Assembly (NCBI GenBank): GCA_964344435.1
Contig: CAYFNH010000001.1
Location: 5,303 to 69,302, forward strand
Length of the DNA: 64,000 nucleotides
Reading direction: 5' to 3'
Source: an uncultured Piscirickettsiaceae bacterium
GTDB taxonomy: Bacteria > Pseudomonadota > Gammaproteobacteria > GCF-002020875
Shown here piece by piece: positions 8,080 to 43,093 of this stretch. The notes under the pieces are model-generated. The model saw nothing but the letters and a program-made list of their open reading frames with translations, did not search any database and was not told the origin of the DNA. The translations under genes and the position numbers were made by a program. Position 1 is the stretch's first letter. The number at the start of each line of letters is the position of its first letter.

Positions 8080-9417
8080 ATGAATGAGTTGACTCCAAGA
8101 GAGATCGTTCACGAACTGGACAAACATATCATTGGTCAGAGCGATGCCAAGCGTGCCGTCGCCATCGCCCTGCGCAACCGCTGGCGCCGGATGCAGGTGA
8201 GCGATGCACTGCGCTACGAGATTACCCCGAAGAATATCCTGATGATCGGTCCGACCGGTGTCGGCAAGACCGAGATTGCGCGCCGCCTGGCGCGCCTGGC
8301 CAACGCCCCCTTCATCAAGGTGGAGGCAACCAAGTTTACTGAAGTCGGCTATGTGGGCAGAGATGTGGAGTCGATCGTGCGCGACCTGGCAGACATTGCC
8401 ATCAAACAACTACGCGAAGAGGCGGTTGAACAGGTCAAGGGACGGGCCGAGGATGCGGCCGAGGAGCGGGTACTGGATGCGCTGCTCCCACCGGTACGTG
8501 GTAGTGGTTTCGACACGGAGTCCGAGCCGCAGGAGGAGTCCTCCACCCGGCAGAAATTCCGCAAGAAACTGCGTGAGGGTGACCTGGATGAGCGTGAGAT
8601 CGAGATCGAGGTGGCCTCCCCCAGTCTGGGAGTGGAGATTATGGGACCTCCGGGCATGGAGGAGATGACCTCACAGCTGCAGAACATATTCCAGAGCATG
8701 GGAGGCAAACCACCCAAACCGAAAAAGATGCGGGTACGGGAGGCCCTCAAGCTGCTGCTGGAGGAGGAGTCTCACAAGATGATCGACGAGGAGGAGATCA
8801 AGTCCCGCGCCATTGAGCGGGTAGAGCAGAATGGAATCGTCTTTCTCGACGAGATCGACAAGGTGGCCCAGCGCAGCGAGGGGCGCAGCGGTGGCGAGGT
8901 CTCACGGGAAGGGGTACAACGTGACCTGCTGCCACTGGTTGAGGGGAGTACCGTCAGTACCAAATATGGCATGATCAAGACCGACCACATCCTCTTTATC
9001 GCCTCGGGCGCCTTCCACCTCTCCAAGCCTTCGGATCTGATTCCGGAGCTGCAGGGCCGGCTGCCGATCCGGGTGGAGCTGGAGGCGCTGAGTGTGGAGG
9101 ACTTCACCAAGATCCTCTCCGAGCCGGATGCCTCGCTTACCGAACAGTACACCGCACTGATGGCTACCGACGGAGTCAACCTGCGCTTCGAGGAGGACGG
9201 CATCCACCGCATTGCCGAGTTCTCCTGGCAGATCAATGAAAACACCGAGAACATCGGAGCCCGCCGCCTGCATACCGTGATGGAGCGACTGCTGGAGGAG
9301 ATCTCCTTTGAAGCGGCCGACCGCAACGGAGAGGAGGTGGTGGTCGATGCAGCCTATGTCGACCGGCATCTCTCCGAGCTGGCAGAGGATGAAGACCTGA
9401 GCCGCTATATCCTGTAA
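8080..9417 (+). CDS. hslU: ATP-dependent protease HslVU, ATPase subunit
   Basis: [39 protein letters not shown]; Walker [16 protein letters not shown]. Length is 445 aa. Confidence 0.95.
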
Positions 9418-9429
9418 TATGAGTCGTCT

Positions 9430-9542
9430 CAAAAACAGTGGCAGTCTTGATCTGCAACCGTTTGTGGGCAGGGATGCCCACAGCCGAGCGACACAAGGAT
9501 GTGCTTGATCGGGTTGCAGGCAGGCGCTGCCACTGCTTTTGG
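9430..9542. repeat. intergenic inverted-repeat element, subtype 2, copy B
   Basis: The TIRs are AAAAACAGTGGCAGTCTTGATCTGCAACC and GGTTGCAGGCAGGCGCTGCCACTGCTTTT. There is an internal hairpin GTGGGCAGGGATGCCCAC and the core GAGCGACACAAGGATGTGCTTGATCGG. The copy is near-identical in architecture to copy C at 15027-15140. Confidence 0.8.
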
Positions 9543-9607
9543 AAGCATTGACATTCAGATGAAGCACGCATCAAATTGAGGAGCCTGTTTTCAAGGAGCT
9601 GTAACCC

Positions 9608-9997
9608 ATGAGCGAAAAGCGAAGCCTGACCCCAACCGAGATCCGCTATGACAAAACTGCACGGACTCTCACCCTGAATTACGAAAATGGCAACTGCTGG
9701 CAATACAGTGCAGAGTTCCTGCGAGTCTACTCCCCCTCTGCCGAGGTGCGTGGCCATGCGCCCGGCGAAGAGATTCTACAGGTGGGCAAGGAGGATGTGG
9801 CCATCGAGAAGATTGACCCGGTTGGCAACTATGCCATCTCCATCAAGTTTGATGACGGCCATGATACCGGCATCTACTCCTGGGAATGGCTCTACACCCT
9901 GGGTGAGAAGCATGACGATTACTGGCAGGAGTATCTCAACCGGCTTGAGGCGGAAGGAATCGAGCGCATGACCACCTCGGAGCGCCTTGCAACCTGA
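9608..9997 (+). CDS. DUF971 family protein (gamma-butyrobetaine hydroxylase N-terminal-like)
   Basis: The 129-aa product carries ...FDDGHDTGIYSWEWLYTLG, the hallmark of DUF971. Confidence 0.7.
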   Translation: MSEKRSLTPTEIRYDKTARTLTLNYENGNCWQYSAEFLRVYSPSAEVRGHAPGEEILQVGKEDVAIEKIDPVGNYAISIKFDDGHDTGIYSWEWLYTLGEKHDDYWQEYLNRLEAEGIERMTTSERLAT

Positions 9998-10037
9998 TAG
10001 AACCTGAAGAGGATCACCTGGCGTCGGGCGAGGATTA

Positions 10038-12250
10038 ATGCGTAAAATCGAGTGGAACGAGGGCATGAGTGTCGGTATCAGCGCCATCGACAACGACCAC
10101 CGCCGTCTGCTGGAGACCATCAACGAGTGGAGACCATCAACGAGATCAACACCGCCATCACCGAGGGCAAGACCGGCGAGCTGATTGAGCCCATCTTCCA
10201 GCGCCTGGAGCAGTACGTGGTTGAACACTTCAGTGCCGAAGAGGTGCTGATGGAGCAGTGCAACTACCGTGGGCTGGAGCGGCACAAGCTGCAACACCAG
10301 AAATTTTTCGAGAAGATCCCCCAGTTGCGCAACAAACTGCTCACCGCCAACAGCATGGAGGTGGCGATGGAGGTGAGCCTGTTTCTCTCCAGCTGGTTGA
10401 TGAACCATGTCATCATGGAGGATATCTCCTACGCGCAGCCAGCCAGTGCTGCCGGCCTCTCGGATCACTCGGAACAGAGTGAGCAGCCACTACAAGGGCT
10501 ACTCAACTGGGCCATATCCGCAATACCTCTGCGACGACGCATCCACCTTGGTGCCCTGGTGCCCATTACCGGCCTGCTGTTACTGATCAGCACTACCCTG
10601 TTCGACCACTATCAGGAGAGCAGCCGTATCCAACAGCTGCTGGGGCTGTCAAATCTGGCTGCCGATATCAACCTTGTCAGCCACCGCCTGCAGGCCGAAC
10701 GCGGCCTCTCTACCGCCTTTATCAGCTCTGGATATCAGCACTTCGAGAGCGCCCTGCAAGAGCAGCGATCCAAAACCAACCGGGCCACCACACGTTACCT
10801 TGGCAGTGTTCAGCAGCTCTCCCCCCAACTCTCCTCAGAACTGCTGCAAATGCAGCAAACCGCCCGCAAGCGAATTGCTCAGCTGTCCCAACAACGTATC
10901 CAGACCGACCAGCAGCGCCACACCATAGCGGCCATGCAGAGCTACTATACCGATACCATCCACGCCCTGCTGGCCATCTACCATGCGATGACCGGGCTGA
11001 CACAGGATCAACAGCTCAGTGGCCATATCCAGAGCATCTCGGCCCTGGTTCAGATGAAAGAGGCCAATGGCCTGAAACGAGCGCAGGGCACTGCCATCCT
11101 GCAGGGAGAGCTCTCCCCCACTGTCGGGCTTCAACTGCTTTCGAAACTGATCGGTGAGCACACCGCCTACCAGCGTATTTTCAGTAACAGCGCCGACCGG
11201 CAACAGCAGCAGCGCTGGCTGGCACTCTCCTCCAGCAGCCCCCATGTGGATGCAAAGGCGGCTGAACAGGTGCTACTGCGTTACCTCAGCGAAAATACCT
11301 CACAGCAGCCATTTGCGGCCGACCACTGGTTCGCACTGATGTCAGAACGAATGGATCAGACCGAGAGCTTCATTGAGCAGGTACTGCACGATATCGAACT
11401 CCGCGCCAGGCAGCTGGCGGATGAGAGCCGCCAGCAGCTTCTCCTCTCAACCCTGTTATGGCTATTGCTGCTACTGTTCACCTCCGTGCTCTCCTGGCTA
11501 CTCAGCCGCAGCGTGATCGAGCCCATCCACCATCTGACCGAAGGCATGGAGCTGCTGTCCCAGGGGGATCGGGGTACACGCTTCTGTCAGCTCTTTGCCA
11601 GGGATGAACTGCGCAAACTCTATGCGGTCTACGAGAGTAGTCGGCGCAATCTGCTCAAGTCCGATATCTCCATCAATATGCAACTGCTGAAACAGGAATT
11701 TACCTATGACCTGAGTGAACGCCAGCGCGATGCGTATGCCGAACTGGCCTCGACCGATTCACTGACCGGGGCCATCAACCGGCGCAAGTTTCTGGAGCTG
11801 GCCGAGAGAGAGTTGCTACGTGCCCGTCGCCAGCAAACCATCCTCTGCTGCCTGATGCTCGATATCGACCATTTCAAGCGGGTCAATGACGAGTATGGTC
11901 ACGACGTGGGGGACAAGGTACTACAGTCCTTTTTTCAGACCTGTTACCGCACGGTACGGGAGTGTGATCTTGTAGCCCGGATTGGTGGGGAAGAGTTTGT
12001 GGTACTGCTCACCAACAGTGACCGCACCAGCGCCCTCTCACTGGCTGAGCGCATTCGCAGTGAGGTGGAGCGGCTACAAATTGCAGTGAGTGCACAGGAG
12101 GAGATTACCATTACCGTCAGCATCGGCCTCTGCTGCCAGTTGATCACCTCCCAGAACATCGAAATGCTGATCAAGGAGGCCGACAATGCGCTCTATGCCG
12201 CCAAGCATCAGGGGCGCAACCGGGTTGTGGTCTGCAGCACAACAGAGTAA
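10038..12250 (+). pseudogene. hemerythrin-NIT-TM/HAMP-GGDEF diguanylate cyclase, frame-disrupted by a 17-bp tandem duplication
   Basis: The ATG at 10038 encodes MRKIEWNEGMSVGISAIDNDHRRLLETINE (bacteriohemerythrin N-terminus) in frame 0. TGGAGACCATCAACGAG at 10111-10127 is repeated exactly at 10128-10144, shifting into the frame of ORF 10052..12250. That ORF continues the hemerythrin fold (INTAITEGK...HFSAEE...HKLQHQKFF...WLMNHVIMEDISY). It goes on with a NIT-like domain (LQAERGLSTAFISSG), a TM segment and a GGDEF domain with RECD I-site and GGEEF. Confidence 0.6.
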
Positions 12251-12258
12251 GTTGGCCA

Positions 12259-14997
12259 TCAATCCGCTGCCGTCAAATGCCTCTGTAACACCCTCCGCAG
12301 CTGCTTCTCTTCAACCGGCTTGCTCAACACCCCATCACAACCCGCCGCTACCATCTCCTCTTCGGTACCCTTCATCACATCGGCGGTCAGGGCATAGATC
12401 GGCCGGCTGAACCCCGTCTTACGCAGGGCCGTGGTCGCCTCCACCCCACTCATCACCGGCATCTGCTTGTCCATCAGCACCAGATCCACCTCCTCGGCCA
12501 ACCCCTTGTCGACCCCCTCCCGGCCATTATCGGCCACCACCACCTCGGCCCCGAGTCGCTTGATCATCTCGGCAACCAGCAGCTGGATCATCTGCGTATC
12601 CTCCACCACCAGCACGGTCCCACGCAGCTGGATCCGCTCCTCCGCATTTCGCTCTGCCTCTTCGTCGATTCGCTGTTCACTGGGGCGGAACGGCAGCTTC
12701 ACCGTAAAGTGGCTGCCAACCCCCTCCGCACTCTCAACCGCAATATCACCGCCCATCATCTCCACCAGATTCCATGAGATATTGAGCCCGAGACCGGTGC
12801 CTCCAAACTTGCGGGTGATCGAACTGTCGGCCTGCTCAAAGGGTCTGAACAGCCGCTTGACCACCTCAGGTGACATGCCAAACCCGGTATCCTTGACCTC
12901 AAACCAGATCTGCTGGCTGCCACTATCAAGCGATACCATCAAGGTGACCTCGCCCTGCTCGGTGAACTTCACCGCATTGCTCAGTAGATTCATCAGAACC
13001 TGTCCGATCCGCACCGGGTCACCCACCAGTTTGTGACGGGGCTGGAAGGTTTGCACCACCTCAAAGCCAACCCCTGCCTCCTGGGTGCGCAGCGAGAAGA
13101 CATCTTTCAATTCATGTATCAGCGCATCCAGGCTGTACTCCTCATCCACAATCTCGAACTTGCCCGCCTCAATCTTGGAGAGGTCGAGGATGTCATTGAT
13201 GAGGGTGAGTTGGGTACGGCCCGACACGGTGATGGCATGCAACATACCGCTCTCCTTCTCGGTGAGCTTGTCGGTTATCAACCGGTTCAGCATCTCCGAG
13301 TAGCCGATGATCGAGGTCAACGGGGTACGTAGCTCATGACTCATCATCGCCAGGAACTGATCCTTGGCCCGGTTGGCCCGGATCGCATTCTCGGCATCCA
13401 GAATCTCGCGCAGGTCACTCAACACCACCACTTCGGCCGCACCTTGTCGCGTACACTGCAGCTGCGTGCGTGCGATGCGTACCGGAATTTTCTCCCCCTC
13501 TGTAGAGCAGAGCTGCCCCTGCTCATCAAACAGCTCATCGATATGTTTGCCAAACAGGGCCCGCTGCCCCATCCCGGTGAGCGTAACCGCCTTGGGGTTG
13601 CTGCGCAGAATTCTCTGCTCCTCGTTTAGCACCAACAGCCCCTGCTCCATCACCTCGATAATGAGGTCGGTCTCCTGCTTGCTGCGCTCGAGCTCTCTGG
13701 ACTGCTGTTCCAGCATCTCCTTGCGCTCGTTGACCTCCTCACTATAGACCTGGAATGCAGAGGCGAGACTGTTGACCTCAAGCACCCGGCTGATGGGGTG
13801 GTTATTGATATCGTCCCGCACCACCGAATCCCGCAGCCGCTCGATCGGGCTCGACAACAACCTGGCCCGGCGGTAGGTGAGCAGCACCACAAACAGGAAG
13901 AGGACAACGGATGCCAGCACAATCTGGCGCTTCAGCGCCTCCACCGGCTGCATCATCTCTTCCCGATCCTGCTTCACCACCATACCCCAGCCCAGTGCCG
14001 GGAGCCAGCGCCAGAGCGCATAGGCCTCTCTGCAGCTCGACTCCAGCACCCATCCATCGCCATCCTTCTGCCCCAGTGCCCGTGTCATCGGAAACTGCAT
14101 CGGTGATTGCTCCCGCAGGGCGATACAGTCCGCATCGGGCTGTCTGCGCTCCATCTCGCGGAAGTGGTTGAGGAAGGTTAGACCGCGCCTGACCTTGTCA
14201 TCGCGCCAGTGCGCCACCAGCACCTCACCGGTCTTCCCCAGGCCACTATAGCTCTCCATCAGGTCACGGAAACGTTGCAGGGGGAATGGGGCTACCAGTA
14301 CTGCCAGAATCTCTTTGCGGTACGGAGAGTAGACCGGCACCCCGATCCACGCCATCGAGCGTTCCGAAATCTCGCTGAAACCGTACCGGGAGACGGCAGC
14401 CTGCCCGGTTTGACGCACCTGCTGGATCATCCGGGCCAGTGGCGAAGGGGTATCCACCATCAGCTCATCCAGCCGCTCACCGTGGCTGATCAGGTAACGA
14501 TCTCCGGTATTGGCCGTCATGAATCGCCCCTGCAGATCAAACAGCAGCAGATCCTTGTTTATCACCAGAGAGAGTTCTCGGCGTATACTACCCAGTTTGG
14601 TCTGGTGATAAATCTGCTGTATCGCCTCAGTGCTATCCATATACACCCAATCATCACCCGTCTGCTGCTGGGGACGACTCTGTATTACACCATGAAGTGC
14701 CGCCCTCAAAGCCCGGCTGTTGGCCACCTGCTGCAGGGCCTGGCGCTCCACTTCATACATCGACTCGATCCGGTTAATGCGGAACTGAGCATGGTATTTC
14801 AGTGAATCCACCACAGTATCCACCACCACTCGCTCGGAGACGAAATAGATCAGCCACCCCAGTGCGGTAACTGCAAACAGTATGGTCAACAATGTGCTAC
14901 GCAGCTGGTGGTAGAGCAGAGGCTGCGGGGTTCCCCGATAGCCCTTGCTCTCAGCGCGTGGCAAACGTTTGCCAAACATGGTGATAGGCTCCCCCAA
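12259..14997 (-). CDS. hybrid sensor histidine kinase (periplasmic sensor, HAMP, PAS, HisKA, HATPase, C-terminal REC)
   Basis: The 912-aa product has two TM segments. H-box FLAMMSHELRTPLTSIIGYSEM; G-boxes DTGFGM and GGTGLGL. The C-terminal receiver reads VLVVEDTQMIQ...LVLMDKQMPVMSG. Confidence 0.88.
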   Translation of the reverse strand: MGEPITMFGKRLPRAESKGYRGTPQPLLYHQLRSTLLTILFAVTALGWLIYFVSERVVVDTVVDSLKYHAQFRINRIESMYEVERQALQQVANSRALRAALHGVIQSRPQQQTGDDWVYMDSTEAIQQIYHQTKLGSIRRELSLVINKDLLLFDLQGRFMTANTGDRYLISHGERLDELMVDTPSPLARMIQQVRQTGQAAVSRYGFSEISERSMAWIGVPVYSPYRKEILAVLVAPFPLQRFRDLMESYSGLGKTGEVLVAHWRDDKVRRGLTFLNHFREMERRQPDADCIALREQSPMQFPMTRALGQKDGDGWVLESSCREAYALWRWLPALGWGMVVKQDREEMMQPVEALKRQIVLASVVLFLFVVLLTYRRARLLSSPIERLRDSVVRDDINNHPISRVLEVNSLASAFQVYSEEVNERKEMLEQQSRELERSKQETDLIIEVMEQGLLVLNEEQRILRSNPKAVTLTGMGQRALFGKHIDELFDEQGQLCSTEGEKIPVRIARTQLQCTRQGAAEVVVLSDLREILDAENAIRANRAKDQFLAMMSHELRTPLTSIIGYSEMLNRLITDKLTEKESGMLHAITVSGRTQLTLINDILDLSKIEAGKFEIVDEEYSLDALIHELKDVFSLRTQEAGVGFEVVQTFQPRHKLVGDPVRIGQVLMNLLSNAVKFTEQGEVTLMVSLDSGSQQIWFEVKDTGFGMSPEVVKRLFRPFEQADSSITRKFGGTGLGLNISWNLVEMMGGDIAVESAEGVGSHFTVKLPFRPSEQRIDEEAERNAEERIQLRGTVLVVEDTQMIQLLVAEMIKRLGAEVVVADNGREGVDKGLAEEVDLVLMDKQMPVMSGVEATTALRKTGFSRPIYALTADVMKGTEEEMVAAGCDGVLSKPVEEKQLRRVLQRHLTAAD

Positions 14998-15026
14998 TGT
15001 TCAAGATTCCCCAATATAAATCGTCT

Positions 15027-15140
15027 TAAAAGTGATGGCAGTCCTGATCTGCGGCCGTCTGTGGGCAAGGAAGCCCACTGTAGAGCGACACAGAGATGTG
15101 CTTGAGCGTGTCGCAGACAGGAGCTGCCATTACTTTTAAA
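15027..15140. repeat. intergenic inverted-repeat element, subtype 2, copy C
   Basis: The TIRs are TTAAAAGTGATGGCAGTCCTGATCTGCGG and CGCAGACAGGAGCTGCCATTACTTTTAAA. There is an internal hairpin GTGGGCAAGGAAGCCCAC and the core GAGCGACACAGAGATGTGCTTGAGCG. It lies between the coaX 3' end and the start of the hybrid kinase. Confidence 0.8.
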
Positions 15141-15319
15141 ACCATTGATACAGGCGTATGAAACCCATTTCCCCGCAGACAGAAACGCTTGACAGGAGCT
15201 CCTCAACTCCCCGTTCTGCTTTGCAGTCAACAGACTACCTGTATACCGATCCCCCCATTATGCCAGTGATGGCTTTACTTGACCATATAGTTCAACAATT
15301 TCAAAAATAGCCGCGACCA

Positions 15320-16042
15320 CTATGGCATGGTTACCAACGCAAGCCCCTGCAGTATCAGATCTTCCACTATCCGAAAAGGCAGCCCCAGCTGTTGCTGCAG
15401 GGCTGCCGCATCCCCACCAGTCAGTATCAGTTCAAATGCCCCCTGCTGCTGCTCGATCTGTTGCAACAGAACCTCGACCACCCCCGGCTCCTCTACCGAC
15501 TGAGACATCAGTGCCTGTGCCGTGGCAGTGCCCAGCAGCTCCCCTCCCACCCGATCACTCTGGCGCAAATGAGGTGCATTTTGTAGCAGTGTCTCCATGG
15601 TGGAGCCAAAACCGGGCAGGATATTGCCCCCTCGATGGTGGCCACTGCGGTCAACATAGTCGATGGTTACTGCAGTACCACAATCGACCAGACAGAAGGC
15701 GGTATGCAGTTGCTCCCACGCCGCGACCATCCCCAGCCAGCGATCGATGCCCAGCTGCTGTGGTTGCCGATATCCGTTGTGCAGCCCCCTGCAAACCACC
15801 CCTGTCTTCACCTCCTCAGCCTCCATGCCCCATACCTCGACCAACCAGCACTGGAGCTGCTGGAAGCGGCGCTCACCGGCGCTGTTGCTGAGGAATATAT
15901 GCTGTGGAGCGGGACGGTTATGCCACTGCTGCACGACGCTTTGCGCTGCCGCCCACGCCACTGCACCCCGCTCAACCAGCTTCTGCTGGTGCTGCCAACC
16001 CCACTTAATACGGCTGTTGCCGGAGTCGATCAGCAGATTCAA
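15320..16042 (-). CDS. coaX: type III pantothenate kinase
   Basis: NLLIDSGNSRIKWG is the N-terminal ASKHA motif. The start is taken at the TTG at 16042, immediately after the birA stop. The upstream ATGs would overlap birA. Confidence 0.8.
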   Translation of the reverse strand: MNLLIDSGNSRIKWGWQHQQKLVERGAVAWAAAQSVVQQWHNRPAPQHIFLSNSAGERRFQQLQCWLVEVWGMEAEEVKTGVVCRGLHNGYRQPQQLGIDRWLGMVAAWEQLHTAFCLVDCGTAVTIDYVDRSGHHRGGNILPGFGSTMETLLQNAPHLRQSDRVGGELLGTATAQALMSQSVEEPGVVEVLLQQIEQQQGAFELILTGGDAAALQQQLGLPFRIVEDLILQGLALVTMP

Positions 16043-16043
16043 C

Positions 16044-17051
16044 TCATTCTGTCCGGGGAGAAACGGGCCGGGAGGAGAGCCGCAGGGATACATCCCCACT
16101 GAAGTGACTGACAATTTCACCATCTTGTTCTACCCGCAGCGCTCCGTGTGGATCAATCCCGCGGGCAATACCGTGAATGACCTCTCCCTCCTGGTGGATT
16201 GCGACCGGAAGATCCCGCACCCGGTCGAGCCGCTGCCACTCCGAGGAGATTGCATTCAGCCCACGTTGCTCGAACTGCTGTAACAGAGGAATCAGATGGT
16301 TGAGCAGCATGGCCGCCAGCCGGTTGCGCGAAGGCGGTGACTGGAGATGGTGAGCCAGCGCAGTCCAGGGCTGATCGATCCGCTGCTCGACATCGGCCAG
16401 CGCTATATTCAGCCCCACCCCAACCACTACATCGGTAGGCCCTTCACTCTCCCCCTCCAGCTCAATCAGCACCCCGCCCAGTTTCTGATCACGATAGTGC
16501 AGGTCGTTGGGCCATTTCAGTTTTACCCCCTCCAGCCCGATGCTCTCAACCGCCTGTGCCAGGGCAACCCCAACCACCAACCCCAAACCGCTCAAGCTCA
16601 TCAACCCACCCGGGAAGCGCCACAACAGGGAGCAGTACAGGCTTCCGCCAAAGGGAGACAGCCACTGCTTGCCTCTGCGTCCGCGCCCGTCAGACTGATG
16701 CTCTGCCAGCAGCACGGCACCCGAATGGGCGCTGCCATCACGCAGACGGCGCATCAGTTCACTGTTGGTGGAGTCACAACTCCAGAACCGCTCCACCCCA
16801 CTCAGGCTAGTCGCCACCTTCGCATCGAGTTGAGCCTCTATCTCCTGGGGGTTGAGCAGAGTCAGTGCCGATGGCAGCGCATATCCCTGCCGCTGTTGCG
16901 AATGGATCTCGACCCCCAATGCCTGCAGCGCCTTGACCTGTTTCCAGACCGCCGCCCGGCCAATGCCGAGAGCGCTACCCAGTGCGGTACCACTGTGTAG
17001 CGCCCCATCCGCAAGTCGCTGCAGCAGCTGCTGCTGTACCGCAGAGATCAC
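16044..17051 (-). CDS. birA: bifunctional biotin-[acetyl-CoA-carboxylase] ligase / biotin operon repressor
   Basis: An N-terminal HTH is followed by a ligase core with GRGRRGKQW. Length is 335 aa. Confidence 0.9.
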   Translation of the reverse strand: MISAVQQQLLQRLADGALHSGTALGSALGIGRAAVWKQVKALQALGVEIHSQQRQGYALPSALTLLNPQEIEAQLDAKVATSLSGVERFWSCDSTNSELMRRLRDGSAHSGAVLLAEHQSDGRGRRGKQWLSPFGGSLYCSLLWRFPGGLMSLSGLGLVVGVALAQAVESIGLEGVKLKWPNDLHYRDQKLGGVLIELEGESEGPTDVVVGVGLNIALADVEQRIDQPWTALAHHLQSPPSRNRLAAMLLNHLIPLLQQFEQRGLNAISSEWQRLDRVRDLPVAIHQEGEVIHGIARGIDPHGALRVEQDGEIVSHFSGDVSLRLSSRPVSPRTE

Positions 17052-33446: not shown

Positions 33447-39355
<5,909 letters not shown>

Positions 39356-39398
39356 TTACTTCCACACCCCTCGAACCCGTTCCTGCTAGAATCTTCCC

Positions 39399-40179
39399 AT
39401 GGATATCGCCTCACTGATTGGTGTCATCTCCGGGCTGGGAATGGTGTTCGGGGCGATTGTCTACGAAGGCAATCTCGACCAGTTCGTCAGTGGACCGGGT
39501 CTGATGATTGTATTTGGCGGTACCATCTCCGCAACCCTGCTCAACTTCCAGCTCAAGGATGTGATTATCGGCATGCGCGCTGTTCACCGGGTATTCACCT
39601 CCAGTCGGGAAAATCCCAATGATGTGCTGTCGCAGATGCTGATTCTGAGCCGTACCGCCCAGGTCAAGGGACCAACCGCACTGGAGAAGCTGATCCAGAA
39701 AGAGGACTCCTGGTTTCAGCGCAAGGCGATTGAGCTCACTGCTGACAACTCGGATGAGTCGGTGATCCGCTCTGCACTACGTTCCGAAATCAGTTCGGTA
39801 AAGCTGCGCAACATGATCACCGAGGATATCTTTCGCAAGATGGCCACCTATGCCCCCCGCCTTCGGCATGATTGGAACCCTGATCGGTCTGATCCAGATG
39901 CTGGCCGCAATGGATGACCCCTCCCAGGTGGGGCCGGCGATGGCAACCGCCCTGACCACCACCTTTTATGGCTCACTGCTCTCCACGGTACTGTTCAACC
40001 CGATTGCCGGGAAGCTGCGCGCCAAGACCATTGAGTCGATCACCAACCTCGAGATCATCTACCTCACTGCGGTCAGCATCAAGCACGGAGAGCACCCGAT
40101 CGCCCTCTACGAACAGGCAGTGGCACTGATCCCATTGGGCCAGCGCCGCCCCTTCGAGATGCCCGAGGTGGGTGCGTAG
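39399..40179 (+). pseudogene. MotA/PomA-family stator protein, split by a +1 frameshift in a C6 homopolymer
   Basis: ORF 39399..39917 (MDIASLIGVISGLGMVFGAIV...KMATYAP) and ORF 39850..40179 (PAFGMIGTLIGLIQMLAAMDDPSQVGPAMATALTTTFYG...) are the N- and C-halves of one MotA/PomA-like protein. Removing one C from CCCCCC at 39853-39858 restores ...ATYAPAFGMIGTLIG.... Confidence 0.65.
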
Positions 40180-40191
40180 CACTGCTACAAC

Positions 40192-40998
40192 ATGGCGGAC
40201 AAGAACACGAGCAGCTCGCTACTCACTCCCCAACAGGACGAGCACGACGACCTGCTCTCCATCCTGACCGCCGAGGAGGGGGATCAGGAGAGTGCAGCCG
40301 GCAGCTGGATTCTCACCTATTCAGACTTGATCACGGTACTGCTGGTACTGTTCGTGATGCTGCAGACCCTCTCTGACTTCAATCTGAAAAAGTTCAATGC
40401 CCTCTTCTACGGCCACTTTGCCACGCCGGAGAAGCTTGCACGGCGTGTCGAGGTTCCGATGATGGAGTCGGTGGCGCTGGATGATTATAAAAATTACAAG
40501 AGTGATACGGTCTACACCAGTTTCACCCGTTTTCGGGATGAACAGCGTGAGGTAGCCGAGTTGCACAAGAAGATCCTGCTAGGGATCAAGGAGAACCAAC
40601 TCAAATACTATGTTACCGCCGAAATCGACCCGGATCGAACCCATGTCATGATCCGCATCCGCAGTGGTCTGCTGTTCAAATCGGGCTCTGCAGCGCTCTC
40701 CACGGGCGCCTACGATATCATCAACCGCATCATCAAGGTGATGCAGCCCCATACCGAATACAGTATCAATATCCGCGGACATACCGACAATATTCCAATC
40801 CAGACCCGGCAATTCCCCTCCAACTGGGAGCTCTCCTCAATCCGCGCCACCAATCTGTTGCGTTACATGCTGGAGCGTGGGGTCGATCCGATGCGACTGA
40901 CCGCCACCGGATACGGGGACCTGCTTCCAGTCGCCAGCAATGACAACAAACTCGACCGGGCCAAGAACCGTCGAGTCGAGTTCCTGTTGAAGAAATAA
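40192..40998 (+). CDS. MotB/PomB-family stator protein (OmpA-like peptidoglycan-binding C-terminal domain)
   Basis: SWILTYSDLITVLLVLFVML carries the conserved Asp (channel plug/TM region). The C-terminal OmpA-like domain reads GHTDNIP...RRVEF. Confidence 0.8.
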   Translation: MADKNTSSSLLTPQQDEHDDLLSILTAEEGDQESAAGSWILTYSDLITVLLVLFVMLQTLSDFNLKKFNALFYGHFATPEKLARRVEVPMMESVALDDYKNYKSDTVYTSFTRFRDEQREVAELHKKILLGIKENQLKYYVTAEIDPDRTHVMIRIRSGLLFKSGSAALSTGAYDIINRIIKVMQPHTEYSINIRGHTDNIPIQTRQFPSNWELSSIRATNLLRYMLERGVDPMRLTATGYGDLLPVASNDNKLDRAKNRRVEFLLKK

Positions 40999-41023
40999 CG
41001 CTTGCCCCCTACCATAACAGGGT

Positions 41024-41575
41024 ATGAAGTTTGTTGTACCACTGTTGCTCCTCCTCGCTCTACCCTTCTCCCACGTATCCGCCAATACGCTGGGCGAGGC
41101 GCTGGCAGCGGTCAAGTCCCTGCAGGATCTGGATCAGGCCAGCCATGTCGTTGCACGCTTCAGTGATACTCTGGAAGAGTGGGAGCAGGCCATTGTCTAC
41201 ACCTCACTGGGGTGGAAGCTCAACGCTGAGGAACGCTACAGGCAGGCCGAGAAGGCGTTCCGCAGAGGGCGCAAGCTCAGCGGAAAGCACTACGAGGTGA
41301 TCGGCATCGCCATTGCCCAGTTCAACCAGAAAAAATACAAGCGCTCCCTGAAGACCATTCAGAGCATGCTGAAACGGGACGAGAAGCACCCGGTTCCCAA
41401 GTCCTACAAGGAGTCTGCCAACTATATTCTGGGTATCAACTATCAGGAGCTCAACAAGCTCCGTCTCGCCTGCATCCACTGGGATCGCGCCTATCGCCTC
41501 ACGATTCGCAAGAGTGATCTCGACTCCCACGGCATGAAGTCATACAAACTGATTCAGCAGCACTGCAAATCGTAG
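41024..41575 (+). CDS. secreted hypothetical protein, helical-repeat (TPR/Sel1-like?)
   Basis: Signal peptide MKFVVPLLLLLALPFSHVSA and a Lys-rich helical protein of 183 aa. It lies directly downstream of the motAB-like pair. Confidence 0.5.
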   Translation: MKFVVPLLLLLALPFSHVSANTLGEALAAVKSLQDLDQASHVVARFSDTLEEWEQAIVYTSLGWKLNAEERYRQAEKAFRRGRKLSGKHYEVIGIAIAQFNQKKYKRSLKTIQSMLKRDEKHPVPKSYKESANYILGINYQELNKLRLACIHWDRAYRLTIRKSDLDSHGMKSYKLIQQHCKS

Positions 41576-41589
41576 TGGCGCAACTGGGC

Positions 41590-41913
41590 TCAGCGCGAAC
41601 TCTCGCGGATCGCCTTGAGATGATCTTTCATCTGTTTGCTGTTATCTTCATCGTAGATTGCATCCAGCAAGTTCTGCTTTGGATCCACCTTTTTGCCGGT
41701 AAGCTTACCCTGCCCCGGTTTTCCCTCGCCTTGGGATCTTCCTTCAGAGGTAACCTCCACAGTGGTCTCCAGTTGTGCCGGGGATTCCTCAGCGGATTGT
41801 GAAGTTTTTGGCTCCGGAGCAACTGCCACCTTGAGAAGATAGAGTCCCAAAAACAGCAGCAGGGAAACCCCCAGCGCAATGAGCAGCCCCTTCATCTCTC
41901 GAACGATTCTCAT
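41590..41913 (-). CDS. small membrane-anchored hypothetical protein
   Basis: A single N-terminal TM segment (LLIALGVSLLLFLGLYLL) is followed by a low-complexity hydrophilic tail. It converges on the 41024 gene. Confidence 0.4.
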   Translation of the reverse strand: MRIVREMKGLLIALGVSLLLFLGLYLLKVAVAPEPKTSQSAEESPAQLETTVEVTSEGRSQGEGKPGQGKLTGKKVDPKQNLLDAIYDEDNSKQMKDHLKAIRESSR

Positions 41914-42020
41914 CGAAGTTCTCCACCGTACCTGCTTGTTATCTCAAAATACTGTAGCACAAAAACCGGAAAAACCCAGAGTAACTACTCACCTCGTTTC
42001 ACCGGGCAAGCATCAATGAC

Positions 42021-42068
42021 TTCAAAAGTATTGGCACTCCTGATCTTGATCAATCCGGGATCGGAGTG
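42021..42068. repeat. truncated copy (one end only) of the subtype-2 repeat element, overlapping the purK 3' end
   Basis: AAAAGTATTGGCACTCCTGATCTTGATC resembles the copy C end AAAAGTGATGGCAGTCCTGATCTGCGGCC. It forms a hairpin, CACTCCTGATC...GATCGGAGTG, and no core is present. Confidence 0.5.
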
Positions 42069-43093
42069 TTGGAACAGTAGGTAACGTGCCCCACTTTTCT
42101 ACCTGCACGGGGGGCCTTGTTATAGTCGTGCAGATGGGCACTCGGATTGGAGAGTACCTGTGAGGCTTCAGGCACACCGCCGATAAAGTTGACCATCCGG
42201 GCATACCCAACCGCTGCGGTTCCTCCCAGGGGCAGACCAGCAATGGCCCGCAGATGGTTTTCGAACTGGCTGCTCTCTGCCCCCTCAATACTCCAGTGGC
42301 CGGAGTTGTGTACCCGGGGGGCCATCTCGTTGACCAGCAATCCAGCATCGGTATCGAACAGCTCCAACGCCATCACCCCAACATAGTCGAGCCTCTCCAG
42401 AAGCCGTTTGGCCAGCGCCTCTGCCAGCGGCTGCCTGGGGTCGTTGGGCAGACTCTTCGCGGTATCGAGAATCCCTTCGTGGTGGTGATTCTCGGAGAGT
42501 GGGTAGTAACGAATCTCACCACTACGGCTACGTACGCTGATAATGGAGATCTCGCGCTGAAAGTTGGCAAATCCCTCCAGGATCAGCGGCACACCACCAA
42601 GCTGCTGCCATGCACTGGCCAGGTCGGCCTCGGTGTGCAACAGCTGCTGCCCCTTGCCATCATAGCCGAGGGTGCGGGTCTTGAGGATTGCAGGCAAACC
42701 AATGCTCTCTACCGCCTGCTGCAGCTCTTCCAGGCTGTCCACCGCCGCGAACGGGACGGTCGCAATCTCCAGCTCGTTACACAGGCTCTTTTCATGGATT
42801 CGATCACGTGCAGTGGCCAGCGCCTGTTGTGAAGGAAACACATCGACCTGTTGAGACAGAGTGGCAATGGCAGTGGCCGGTACATTCTCGAATTCGTAGG
42901 TGACCACGTCAGCCTTCGCGGCCATTTCCCGTAACAGGGCCTCATCATCATAGTCCCCCTGGAGGTGCTCACCCAACGGGGCTGCACAGGCATCTACGGC
43001 AGGATCAAGAAAAATGAAGCGCATCCCCAGCGGGATACCGGCCAGTGCCATCATCCTCGCCAGTTGCCCACCACCCACGATGCCGATGACCAT
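42050..43093 (-). CDS. purK: N5-carboxyaminoimidazole ribonucleotide synthase
   Basis: MVIGIVGGGQLARMMALAG... ATP-grasp fold, next to purE. Confidence 0.92.
   Translation of the reverse strand: MVIGIVGGGQLARMMALAGIPLGMRFIFLDPAVDACAAPLGEHLQGDYDDEALLREMAAKADVVTYEFENVPATAIATLSQQVDVFPSQQALATARDRIHEKSLCNELEIATVPFAAVDSLEELQQAVESIGLPAILKTRTLGYDGKGQQLLHTEADLASAWQQLGGVPLILEGFANFQREISIISVRSRSGEIRYYPLSENHHHEGILDTAKSLPNDPRQPLAEALAKRLLERLDYVGVMALELFDTDAGLLVNEMAPRVHNSGHWSIEGAESSQFENHLRAIAGLPLGGTAAVGYARMVNFIGGVPEASQVLSNPSAHLHDYNKAPRAGRKVGHVTYCSNTPIPD

Follow-up and report, generated by a model that had tools for sequence, protein, structure and literature searches.

The 64-kb window analyzed here, a stretch of contig CAYFNH010000001.1 from an uncultured gammaproteobacterium, contains at positions 39399-41913 a motA-motB-like gene pair whose A-subunit gene is interrupted by a single extra C. 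In our interpretation, to which we assign a probability of roughly 0.6, the locus is a recently inactivated PomAB-type flagellar stator operon that was inherited vertically and is located directly downstream of gltBD. An earlier description of the locus, made from the letters of the DNA only and referred to below as the sequence-only reading, was re-checked in all its coordinates and features, and these agree. The pair indeed lies outside any flagellar cluster (no flagellar or chemotaxis domains were found by Pfam scans of all main open reading frames (ORFs) of the 64 kb) and, according to the ORF coordinates, between gltD and purK. A check of ORFs and frames likewise confirmed that motA is broken by an extra C in the run at 39853-39858 and encodes 259 amino acids (aa) once repaired, and the 268-aa MotB was found to keep both the transmembrane (TM) aspartate, D45, and the OmpA-like C-terminal domain detected by Pfam. 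The coordinates of the features are collected in Table 1.

Deletion of one C from the C6 run yields the 259-aa MotA reading ...MATYAPAFGMIGTLIGL..., whose junction region is ...RKMATYAPAFGMIGTLIGLIQML... In the window itself the codons at the shift site are TAT GCC CCC CGC CTT, and the tail of the frame-0 product reads ...MATYAPRLRHDWNPDR... The rest of the gene continues in frame +1 up to the stop codon at 40177-40179 and carries the invariant motif PAFGMIGTLIGL and the threonine triad T160/T187/T188 (numbering of the repaired protein); a trans-frame product would contain ...MATYAPAFGMIGT... The frame changes precisely where the cytoplasmic domain ends and TM3 begins. In each assembly the public gene calls comprise a 172-aa gene and the 103-aa version that begins at ATG 39868. 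Two ATG codons of the +1 frame are situated just at the shift site (39850-39852 and 39868-39870), and the first of them arises from TAT GCC, so that it is shared by the related contigs L009, L013, L016, L017, L018 and L020.

In order to judge whether the sixth C belongs to the organism, the contigs with an exact match to MotB were retrieved (20 contigs), and seven of them were compared, originating from six runs (ERR2281801/04/05 and SRR22722180/83/85) of two projects and from two assembly pipelines (MEGAHIT in the European Nucleotide Archive; Logan). Across motA-motB, none of the seven differs from the window (100% identity), and each carries C6, the DNA reading ATGCCCCCCG; motA was called as two genes each time. 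Moreover, among approximately 15 billion proteins no exact match to the intact 259-aa MotA was found, and the same collection records the 172-aa and 103-aa fragments from 9-10 contigs. The extra C is, in our judgement, genuine and fixed in this clone. One of the contigs (L004, Logan contig ERR2281805_57868) shows 50 mismatches within 320 bp of gltD at its end (L004 3-325, corresponding to window positions 38560-38881). Its interpretation as a second strain with 98% identity was rejected, since the mismatches are confined to a chimeric contig end that joins two related organisms and motAB is identical. As motAB is identical in this contig as well, it offers no strain diversity for a dN/dS comparison.

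The ancestral state of the run was deduced from relatives. The repaired MotA has thousands of homologues, the closest of which are unnamed metagenomic proteins of 256-259 aa with 61-86% identity, and the C-run site was read in relatives whose MotA is 53-86% identical. The contig L020 (86% MotA identity) has TAT GCC CCC GCC TTC GGC ATG at this site, L021 (79%) has TAC GCC CCC GCC TTC GGC ATG, and L013 and L018 have TAT GCC CCC GCC TTT followed by GGC or GGG and ATG; in all of them the run is C5 and the frame is maintained. Apart from the synonymous TAC in L021, the window corresponds to the L020 and L021 sequence plus one C. Since the relatives carry C5 in frame, the sixth C is best explained by slippage that inserted one base into an ancestral C5 in this lineage only, and not by conserved recoding. 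Signs of a programmed frameshift were not found: the orthologues are single in-frame ORFs with C5, and the window sequence contains neither a Shine-Dalgarno-like stimulator nor a stop or rare codon in the A site. The L020 contig has a peculiarity of its own. At its start (positions 1-69), 23-nucleotide tandem-like repeats, GTTCACG(T/A)T(A/G)AA(C/T)CAGAAT(G/C)GGT, stand in place of roughly the first 22 codons of motA; a repeat or mobile element could have disrupted the 5' end independently here, or the contig end could be chimeric.

The family of the disrupted gene was examined with the repaired protein. In a phmmer search of all PDB sequences, residues 1-236 align with Vibrio alginolyticus PomA (E 1.5e-42) with a single two-residue gap, and the matches consist solely of flagellar stator A subunits, PomA being followed by Paenibacillus MotA1 (7e-41) and by the MotA proteins of Aquifex, Clostridium, Bacillus and Campylobacter. 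Pfam identifies MotA_ExbB and MotA_N, and the highest-ranking NCBIfam models are PomA, MotP, PRK09109 (an unnamed model for a flagellar motor protein) and MotA. The AlphaFold2 model (40 homologues; predicted local distance difference test (pLDDT) 83.6) has four TM helices and the MotA/PomA fold; between TM2 and TM3 it contains the helices 52-67, 73-90, 92-98 and 105-115, which are collinear with the PomA cytoplasmic domain. When this model was compared to the PDB using Foldseek, TM-scores of 0.77-0.82 to PomA/MotA structures were obtained for chains aligned over at least 245 columns (0.79-0.81 for PomA 8brd). The TolQ/ExbB structures reached 0.3-0.5, with E above 0.02, and neither ZorA nor GldL was matched.

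The B subunit is consistent with this assignment. Pfam scores are 43.4 bits for MotB_plug (cut-off 24) and 65.1 bits for OmpA (cut-off 27.2), Asp45 lies within the TM segment ILTYSDLITVLLVLFVML, and the peptidoglycan-binding motifs GHTD...NWELS..RA...NRRVEF are conserved. The best PDB match is the flagellar MotB of C. sporogenes (E 4e-31, residues 31-265), and B. subtilis MotB is matched as well (E ~1e-31 to 1e-29 for the two proteins). The best NCBIfam models are MotD, MotB and MotS, all of them under their cut-offs (MotD 163.6 vs 283).

As proposed by Puente-Lelievre et al. (2025, PMC12505986), the TGI4 subgroup of the "flagellar ion transporter" class is characterized by a cytoplasmic domain of at least four helices, a square-fold TM domain, a plug with a linker and an OmpA-like domain, and these traits are reported to be absent from the non-flagellar relatives. 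If the four-helix TM fold of MotA/PomA is taken to stand for the square-fold TM domain, the predicted features of the pair match this class and subgroup. The sequence-only reading had left the role open between gliding, Tol-like and Zorya functions. Sequence and fold point instead squarely to the flagellar stator class (no ZorA match, TolQ at 13 bits and TM-scores of 0.3-0.5), and at the family level the repaired protein is essentially placed with flagellar MotA, an outcome which that reading had itself named as speaking against its proposal.

The residues that line the channel suggest the coupling ion. T158, T185 and T186 of PomA are conserved in all Na+-driven stators, and the H+-driven ones have Ala at positions 158 and 185 (Hu et al. 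2023, PMC10374538). The equivalent residues are T160, T187 and T188 here, and they are invariant or nearly so in the clade; because the threonine triad is present, Na+ coupling is the better guess and probably applies to this pair. As for the contacts with the rotor, PomA R88, E96 and D114 are indispensable for motility according to the same authors (PMC10374538). The charged interface residues of E. coli MotA are R90 and E98. The window and the relatives that are at least 75% identical have Gln at position 88 and keep E96 and D116 (PomA D114). In the wider subfamily (~50% identity) Arg88 is kept and position 96 is variable, with Ser, Ala, Gly or Gln in most members and Glu or Asp in about a fifth. 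The rotor-contact surface thus appears to be non-canonical. Co-variation of FliG, or a stator that is weak or auxiliary, would be compatible with such a surface, which would also leave small room for a non-flagellar partner.

The placement of the genes in other genomes was also compared. The order gltB-gltD-motA-motB is kept in all four relatives whose contig reaches upstream, in which MotA is intact (256-259 aa) and 77% (L009), 79% (L021), 63% (L013) and 61% (L010) identical to the repaired protein. More distant members, found in a Methylococcales metagenome-assembled genome (L016), in Desulfospira joergensenii (L017) and in further metagenomic contigs (L018 and L019), are also stand-alone motAB pairs, at unrelated positions. 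Stand-alone placement is therefore the rule for the whole subfamily. Since stand-alone stator operons are normal in flagellated bacteria, as exemplified by Vibrio pomAB, the "orphan" location carries little weight. In L009, the interval between motB and the ortholog of the next gene (8514-16945) contains cheB, cheR, a gene for a 1379-aa HAMP-GAF hybrid histidine kinase, a 148-aa ORF and a second hybrid kinase gene; the same interval comprises 25 nucleotides in the window. A PilZ gene overlaps the end of motB in D. joergensenii (L017 11476-11862), and another one is located 3.3 kb upstream of motA in the Methylococcales contig (L016 6322-6702), which hints at a control of the stand-alone stator subfamily by cyclic di-GMP (c-di-GMP) via PilZ. 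A relative with 53% identity from the same metagenome project has a MotB of 505 aa, about twice the usual length (L018 4073-5590; L019 4016-5533), and this gene is followed by genes for a CHASE2-guanylate cyclase, an MtxA-like protein, a 1229-aa TPR protein and an Apyc1-like phosphodiesterase.

The events at the locus can be proposed as follows. Replication slippage would have added one C to the ancestral C5, which belongs to the Ala152-Pro153 codons, and the frame would shift at the boundary between the loop and TM3. The frame-0 product would consist of TM1, TM2, the cytoplasmic domain and a nonsense tail of 19 residues, and TM3 and TM4 with the channel-lining residues would remain unmade unless translation restarts or ribosomes shift. 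As no full-length A subunit would be encoded, the stator has most likely lost its function. In the intact relatives, the complex is expected to form a PomA5-PomB2-like ion-driven rotary unit, in which ions, probably Na+ in view of the threonine triad, would pass the TM Asp of the B subunit, with the plug gating the channel. Anchoring to peptidoglycan would be the task of the OmpA-like domain, and the A subunit would push on a rotor, most likely FliG, with its four-helix cytoplasmic domain; we infer that the partner is the flagellar rotor.

The lesion is probably recent, because it is the only one seen, motB and the TPR gene downstream of it are intact, and no significant acceleration of the substitution rate was observed. 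In a relative-rate test against the closest relative, 17 vs 9 unique changes were counted for MotA (p about 0.1) and 15 vs 16 for MotB; the difference of 17 vs 9 is not significant, and the test thus gave no support for relaxed selection on motA. The absence of a Shine-Dalgarno sequence at motA was also considered as a sign of decay and was rejected, given that roughly half of the genes of the window lack a Shine-Dalgarno-like sequence by a crude substring match.

Several observations weigh against the interpretation of the locus as an inactivated flagellar stator operon. All NCBIfam equivalog cut-offs were missed by the A subunit (PomA 194.7 vs 341, MotP 169.6 vs 394, PRK09109 153.4 vs 237), and because of this the pair is not an ortholog of any named stator. 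The window and the relatives that are at least 75% identical carry Gln88 in place of PomA R88, where the nearby Lys90 might act as a substitute, and the equivalent of PomA R232 is not conserved. No flagellar rotor, export or chemotaxis gene is linked to the organism within the 64-kb window. A scan of a genome collection with MotB turned up no relative, its single match being an unrelated OmpA protein of an Acidobacteriota genome, and in a homology search with TopA the named entries, labelled "Gammaproteobacteria bacterium", were at most 69% identical. The contigs with the C6 allele, being 100% identical, represent one clone, and the two projects are perhaps not biologically independent. Additionally, a +1 slip on the shifty CCC-C would, as a minority possibility, restore exactly the ancestral protein, and a separate TM3-TM4 polypeptide of 109 or 103 aa is formally possible.

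The last two of these points lead to an alternative that we regard as unlikely, according to which the gene is still functional. Either a fraction of the ribosomes would slip by +1 on CCC-C through re-pairing of the peptidyl-tRNA-Pro, or two halves (TM1-2 with the loop, and TM3-4 from ATG 39850 or 39868) would be produced separately and assemble, and C6 would then stand for a down-tuned stator and not for a null one. CCC-C is an intrinsically +1-shifty P-site context, and a slip at GCC CCC C yields YAPAFGM, exactly the ancestral sequence. The precise position of the break at the domain boundary, the new-frame ATG at 39850, the intact motB and TPR genes, the lack of rate acceleration in MotB and the fixation of the C6 allele in all samples are in agreement with a gene that is still in use. 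However, no stimulatory element is visible, as no Shine-Dalgarno-like sequence is present upstream and the A-site codon CGC is neither rare nor a stop, and the shift site is not conserved, the relatives having C5 in frame. Without stimulation, +1 slippage typically amounts to about a percent or less, and we know of no precedent for a split MotA.

According to a second alternative, which we consider equally unlikely, the gltBD-linked PomAB-like clade does not comprise flagellar stators. It would consist of stand-alone Na+-driven rotary units with another partner, the TPR and PilZ proteins being accessory to them, and the loss of the unit would say nothing about swimming. All members examined lie outside flagellar clusters, position 88 is Gln in the narrow clade and Arg in the wider subfamily, whose position 96 varies, motB is followed by a TPR gene in the three closest genomes and by a PilZ gene in Desulfospira, and all equivalog cut-offs were missed. 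On the other hand, the pair has the plug, the OmpA-like domain and the four cytoplasmic helices, which are confined to flagellar stators according to PMC12505986. The narrow clade retains the (-) face residues E96 and D116, cheB and cheR adjoin motB in the relative with 77% MotA identity (L009), and the TPR gene is separable from motB (L009) or absent (L010 and L013). It was mentioned above that stand-alone stator operons are common in flagellated bacteria. A more specific form of this proposal appears slightly more doubtful still, namely that the clade represents a flagellum-independent, peptidoglycan-anchored rotary unit which arose from within the flagellar stator class and has the TPR protein as a partner, and that the organism of the window has just lost this unit.

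An error of sequencing or assembly is an improbable source of the extra C, and so is a minority allele in an organism whose motA is in reality intact. Homopolymers are a classic site of indel errors, and the identical contigs might come from related samples or read sets. Against this stand the recovery of C6 from seven contigs of six runs, two projects and two assembly pipelines, and the lack of an intact allele in the 15-billion-protein collection, from which both fragments are recorded on 9-10 contigs. Furthermore, no other gene of the window is split, and a run of six bases is short for a systematic short-read error.

Even less credible is a contingency tract by which phase variation would turn the stator on and off. 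A single-base homopolymer lesion is reversible in principle, and Campylobacter and Helicobacter are known to switch motility genes in this way through homopolymers, but high switching rates need tracts of about 8 or more, the run did not vary in length across the seven contigs from six runs, it is unremarkable among the 54 homopolymers of at least 6 bases in the 64 kb, and the relatives simply carry Ala-Pro-Ala codons at the site. Of the three explanations considered in the sequence-only reading for the C6 run, sequencing error and phase variation are thus disfavored, the former by C6 in six runs and the missing intact allele and the latter by the short, invariant tract and the C5 of the relatives, and the pseudogene lesion is retained in the form of a probable recent loss.

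Table 1. Features of the disrupted stator locus and its surroundings in the 64-kb window.
Feature	Coordinates	Strand	Remarks
gltB	33447..37946		upstream flank
gltD	37949..39355		upstream flank
CCTG(A/C)TAG(G/A)AT motif, extended -10-like	39379..39398	+	read by eye, ends 6-7 nucleotides before the motA ATG
motA/pomA-like A-subunit gene, disrupted	39399..40179	+	codons 1-153 in frame 0, remainder in frame +1
Frame-0 ORF, 172 aa	39399..39917	+	TM1, TM2, cytoplasmic domain and 19-aa out-of-frame tail
Frame +1 ORF (TM3, TM4, C-terminus)	39850..40179	+	109 aa from ATG 39850, 103 aa from ATG 39868
C6 homopolymer, one-base insertion, +1 frameshift site	39853..39858	+	exactly C6, G on either side
motB/pomB-like B-subunit gene, intact, 268 aa	40192..40998	+	Pfam MotB_plug and OmpA above cut-offs
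Secreted TPR-like protein, 183 aa	41024..41575	+	25 nucleotides after motB, same direction; weak TPR Pfam matches
Single-TM protein, 107 aa	41590..41913	-	convergent with motAB-TPR, one N-terminal hydrophobic helix, last gene of the purE-purK strand
purK	42050..43093	-	downstream flank, followed by purE, topA, smg, dprA, def and fmt
Hemerythrin-NIT-GGDEF protein, 732 aa	10052..12250		27 kb from the stator genes

The sequence-only reading had also noticed a secreted helical protein of 183 aa and a convergent single-TM protein downstream of motB, and had compared them to MotX/MotY. The description of both proteins holds, as the 183-aa protein has a signal-peptide-like N-terminus (MKFVVPLLLLLALPFSHVSA|N) and its AlphaFold2 model contains nine helices (pLDDT 66). 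The comparison is not supported. The structure prediction that had been suggested for this protein gave matches to generic or designed TPR proteins only, a Sel1 match was not found by Pfam and the generic TPR matches were sub-threshold. When 1.84 billion representatives were scanned in full with HMMER, only two of the relatives were full-length, the rest being generic TPR-repeat similarity. A MotX-like role was rejected because of the missing Sel1 signature, the generic TPR folds matched by a low-confidence model (pLDDT 66) and the tiny size of the family, and by its sequence the protein is a generic, lineage-restricted TPR protein. Orthologs are located directly after motB in L020 (68% identity) and L021 (52%), and in L009 (41%) the ortholog lies 9 kb away, beyond the cheBR-kinase insertion; none was found in the L010 and L013 loci. 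The gene follows motB in the closest genomes only, where it may be co-transcribed with motAB, and it is possibly the third gene of the motAB operon.

The 107-aa protein gave no significant Pfam or NCBIfam match. Its orthologs in L021 (5925-6248) and L010 (11743-12075) share the conserved C-terminus MKDHL.(I/M)RES(S/T)R and have a low-complexity middle part. In the window, L021 and L010 the gene is always located at the 3' end of the purE/purK strand, and on account of this synteny with purEK it probably does not belong to the stator unit.

Upstream of motA, a short conserved motif can be observed in otherwise diverged spacers: cCTGCTAGAATcttcccATG in the window, CCTGATAGGATaccagcATG in L009 (6916-6935) and CCTGATAGGATagaagccATG in L021 (2960-2980), where it lies 3' of a GC-rich inverted repeat after gltD. 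The motif resembles an extended -10 element (TGnTAGRAT) and is possibly motA's own promoter; judging from its position, transcription could start at or next to the AUG, and the motA mRNA would then be leaderless or nearly so. A scan with the sigma-70 consensus predicted no promoter in 39000-42300, and the terminator-like matches in the same region were little above the shuffle expectation.

The remaining part of the 64 kb consists of housekeeping and signaling genes. In addition to the flanking genes listed in Table 1, these include coaD, rsmD, two M16 peptidase genes, ftsY, hslVU, hybrid kinase genes, coaX, birA, dsbA, a cytochrome c gene, polA, an RND pump, ntrYX-like genes, trkAH, gmk, spoT and recG. 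The motA frameshift is the sole split gene among them, all the others looking full-length, and no RNA element was found in the window using Rfam. The 732-aa protein combines an N-terminal hemerythrin domain with NIT (nitrate/nitrite-sensing) and GGDEF (diguanylate cyclase) domains, and is a possible candidate for an O2/NOx-responsive source of c-di-GMP.

Taken by itself, the finding matters little, since with it the very large and well-known PomAB/MotAB family gains one more copy, inactivated by a frameshift. The locus illustrates that an "orphan" placement of stator genes is normal, and it has a minor value as a snapshot of motility-gene loss in which one fixed homopolymer insertion is the sole visible damage. 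The predicted inactivation suggests that this uncultured gammaproteobacterium has recently turned to a non-motile or stator-redundant lifestyle. The broader subfamily, which is stand-alone, has a Na+-type signature and non-canonical rotor contacts, and in some members shows PilZ or TPR links, would be worth a look in the classification of stator diversity.

Among the known systems, the TolQR/ExbBD/AglRQS complexes and Zorya ZorAB share with the pair the MotA_ExbB Pfam superfamily and the TM Asp of the B subunit, and ZorB also has an OmpA-like domain. However, these systems lack the plug and the expanded cytoplasmic domain that are present here (PMC12505986). An assignment to TolQR/ExbBD/AglRQS was rejected (TolQ 13.1 bits vs a cut-off of 221, TM-scores of 0.3-0.5, plug and OmpA domain present), and so was one to Zorya, as PADLOC detected no ZorA, the similarity to ZorB was at the domain level only, through the shared MotB/OmpA domains, and no ZorC or ZorD neighbors were found.

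Frameshifts in C. jejuni motA and in the C-tract of H. pylori fliP are examples of motility genes inactivated at homopolymers, and they resemble the present lesion in that a single-base indel occurs in a short homopolymer and the rest of the operon is intact. In contrast to those laboratory variants, the present allele has become fixed in a population in the environment, and its tract does not reach the length needed for classical phase variation.

The auxiliary stators, such as Pseudomonas MotCD, Bacillus MotPS and Shewanella MotAB (as compared with PomAB), are two-gene operons located away from flagellar genes, as is the pair in the window. The MotP, MotD and PRK09109 models are among its best matches, although all equivalog cut-offs are missed. 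MotCD is under c-di-GMP control through FlgZ, and a PilZ gene is found next to motB in a distant member of the subfamily.

The known system to which the pair can be compared over its full length is PomA/PomB, the Na+-driven polar stator of Vibrio alginolyticus (8BRD, 8BRI and 8ZYV). The B subunit of the window has 268 aa vs 315 aa and is over its full length nearer to Firmicute MotB than to PomB, a MotX/MotY gene was not found in the window, and the A gene is frameshifted. PomA R88, K89 and R232 are replaced by Q88, V89 and I234, and the NCBIfam PomA score falls short of its cut-off, as given above. In contrast to these differences, the A subunits are collinear over the full length with 34-35% identity and a two-residue indel, share a predicted fold with a TM-score of about 0.8, with four TM helices and a four-helix cytoplasmic domain, and have T158, T185, T186, P151, P199, E96 and D114 of PomA in common. 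The B subunits likewise share the TM Asp, the plug and the OmpA-like domain, and both operons are located outside flagellar clusters.

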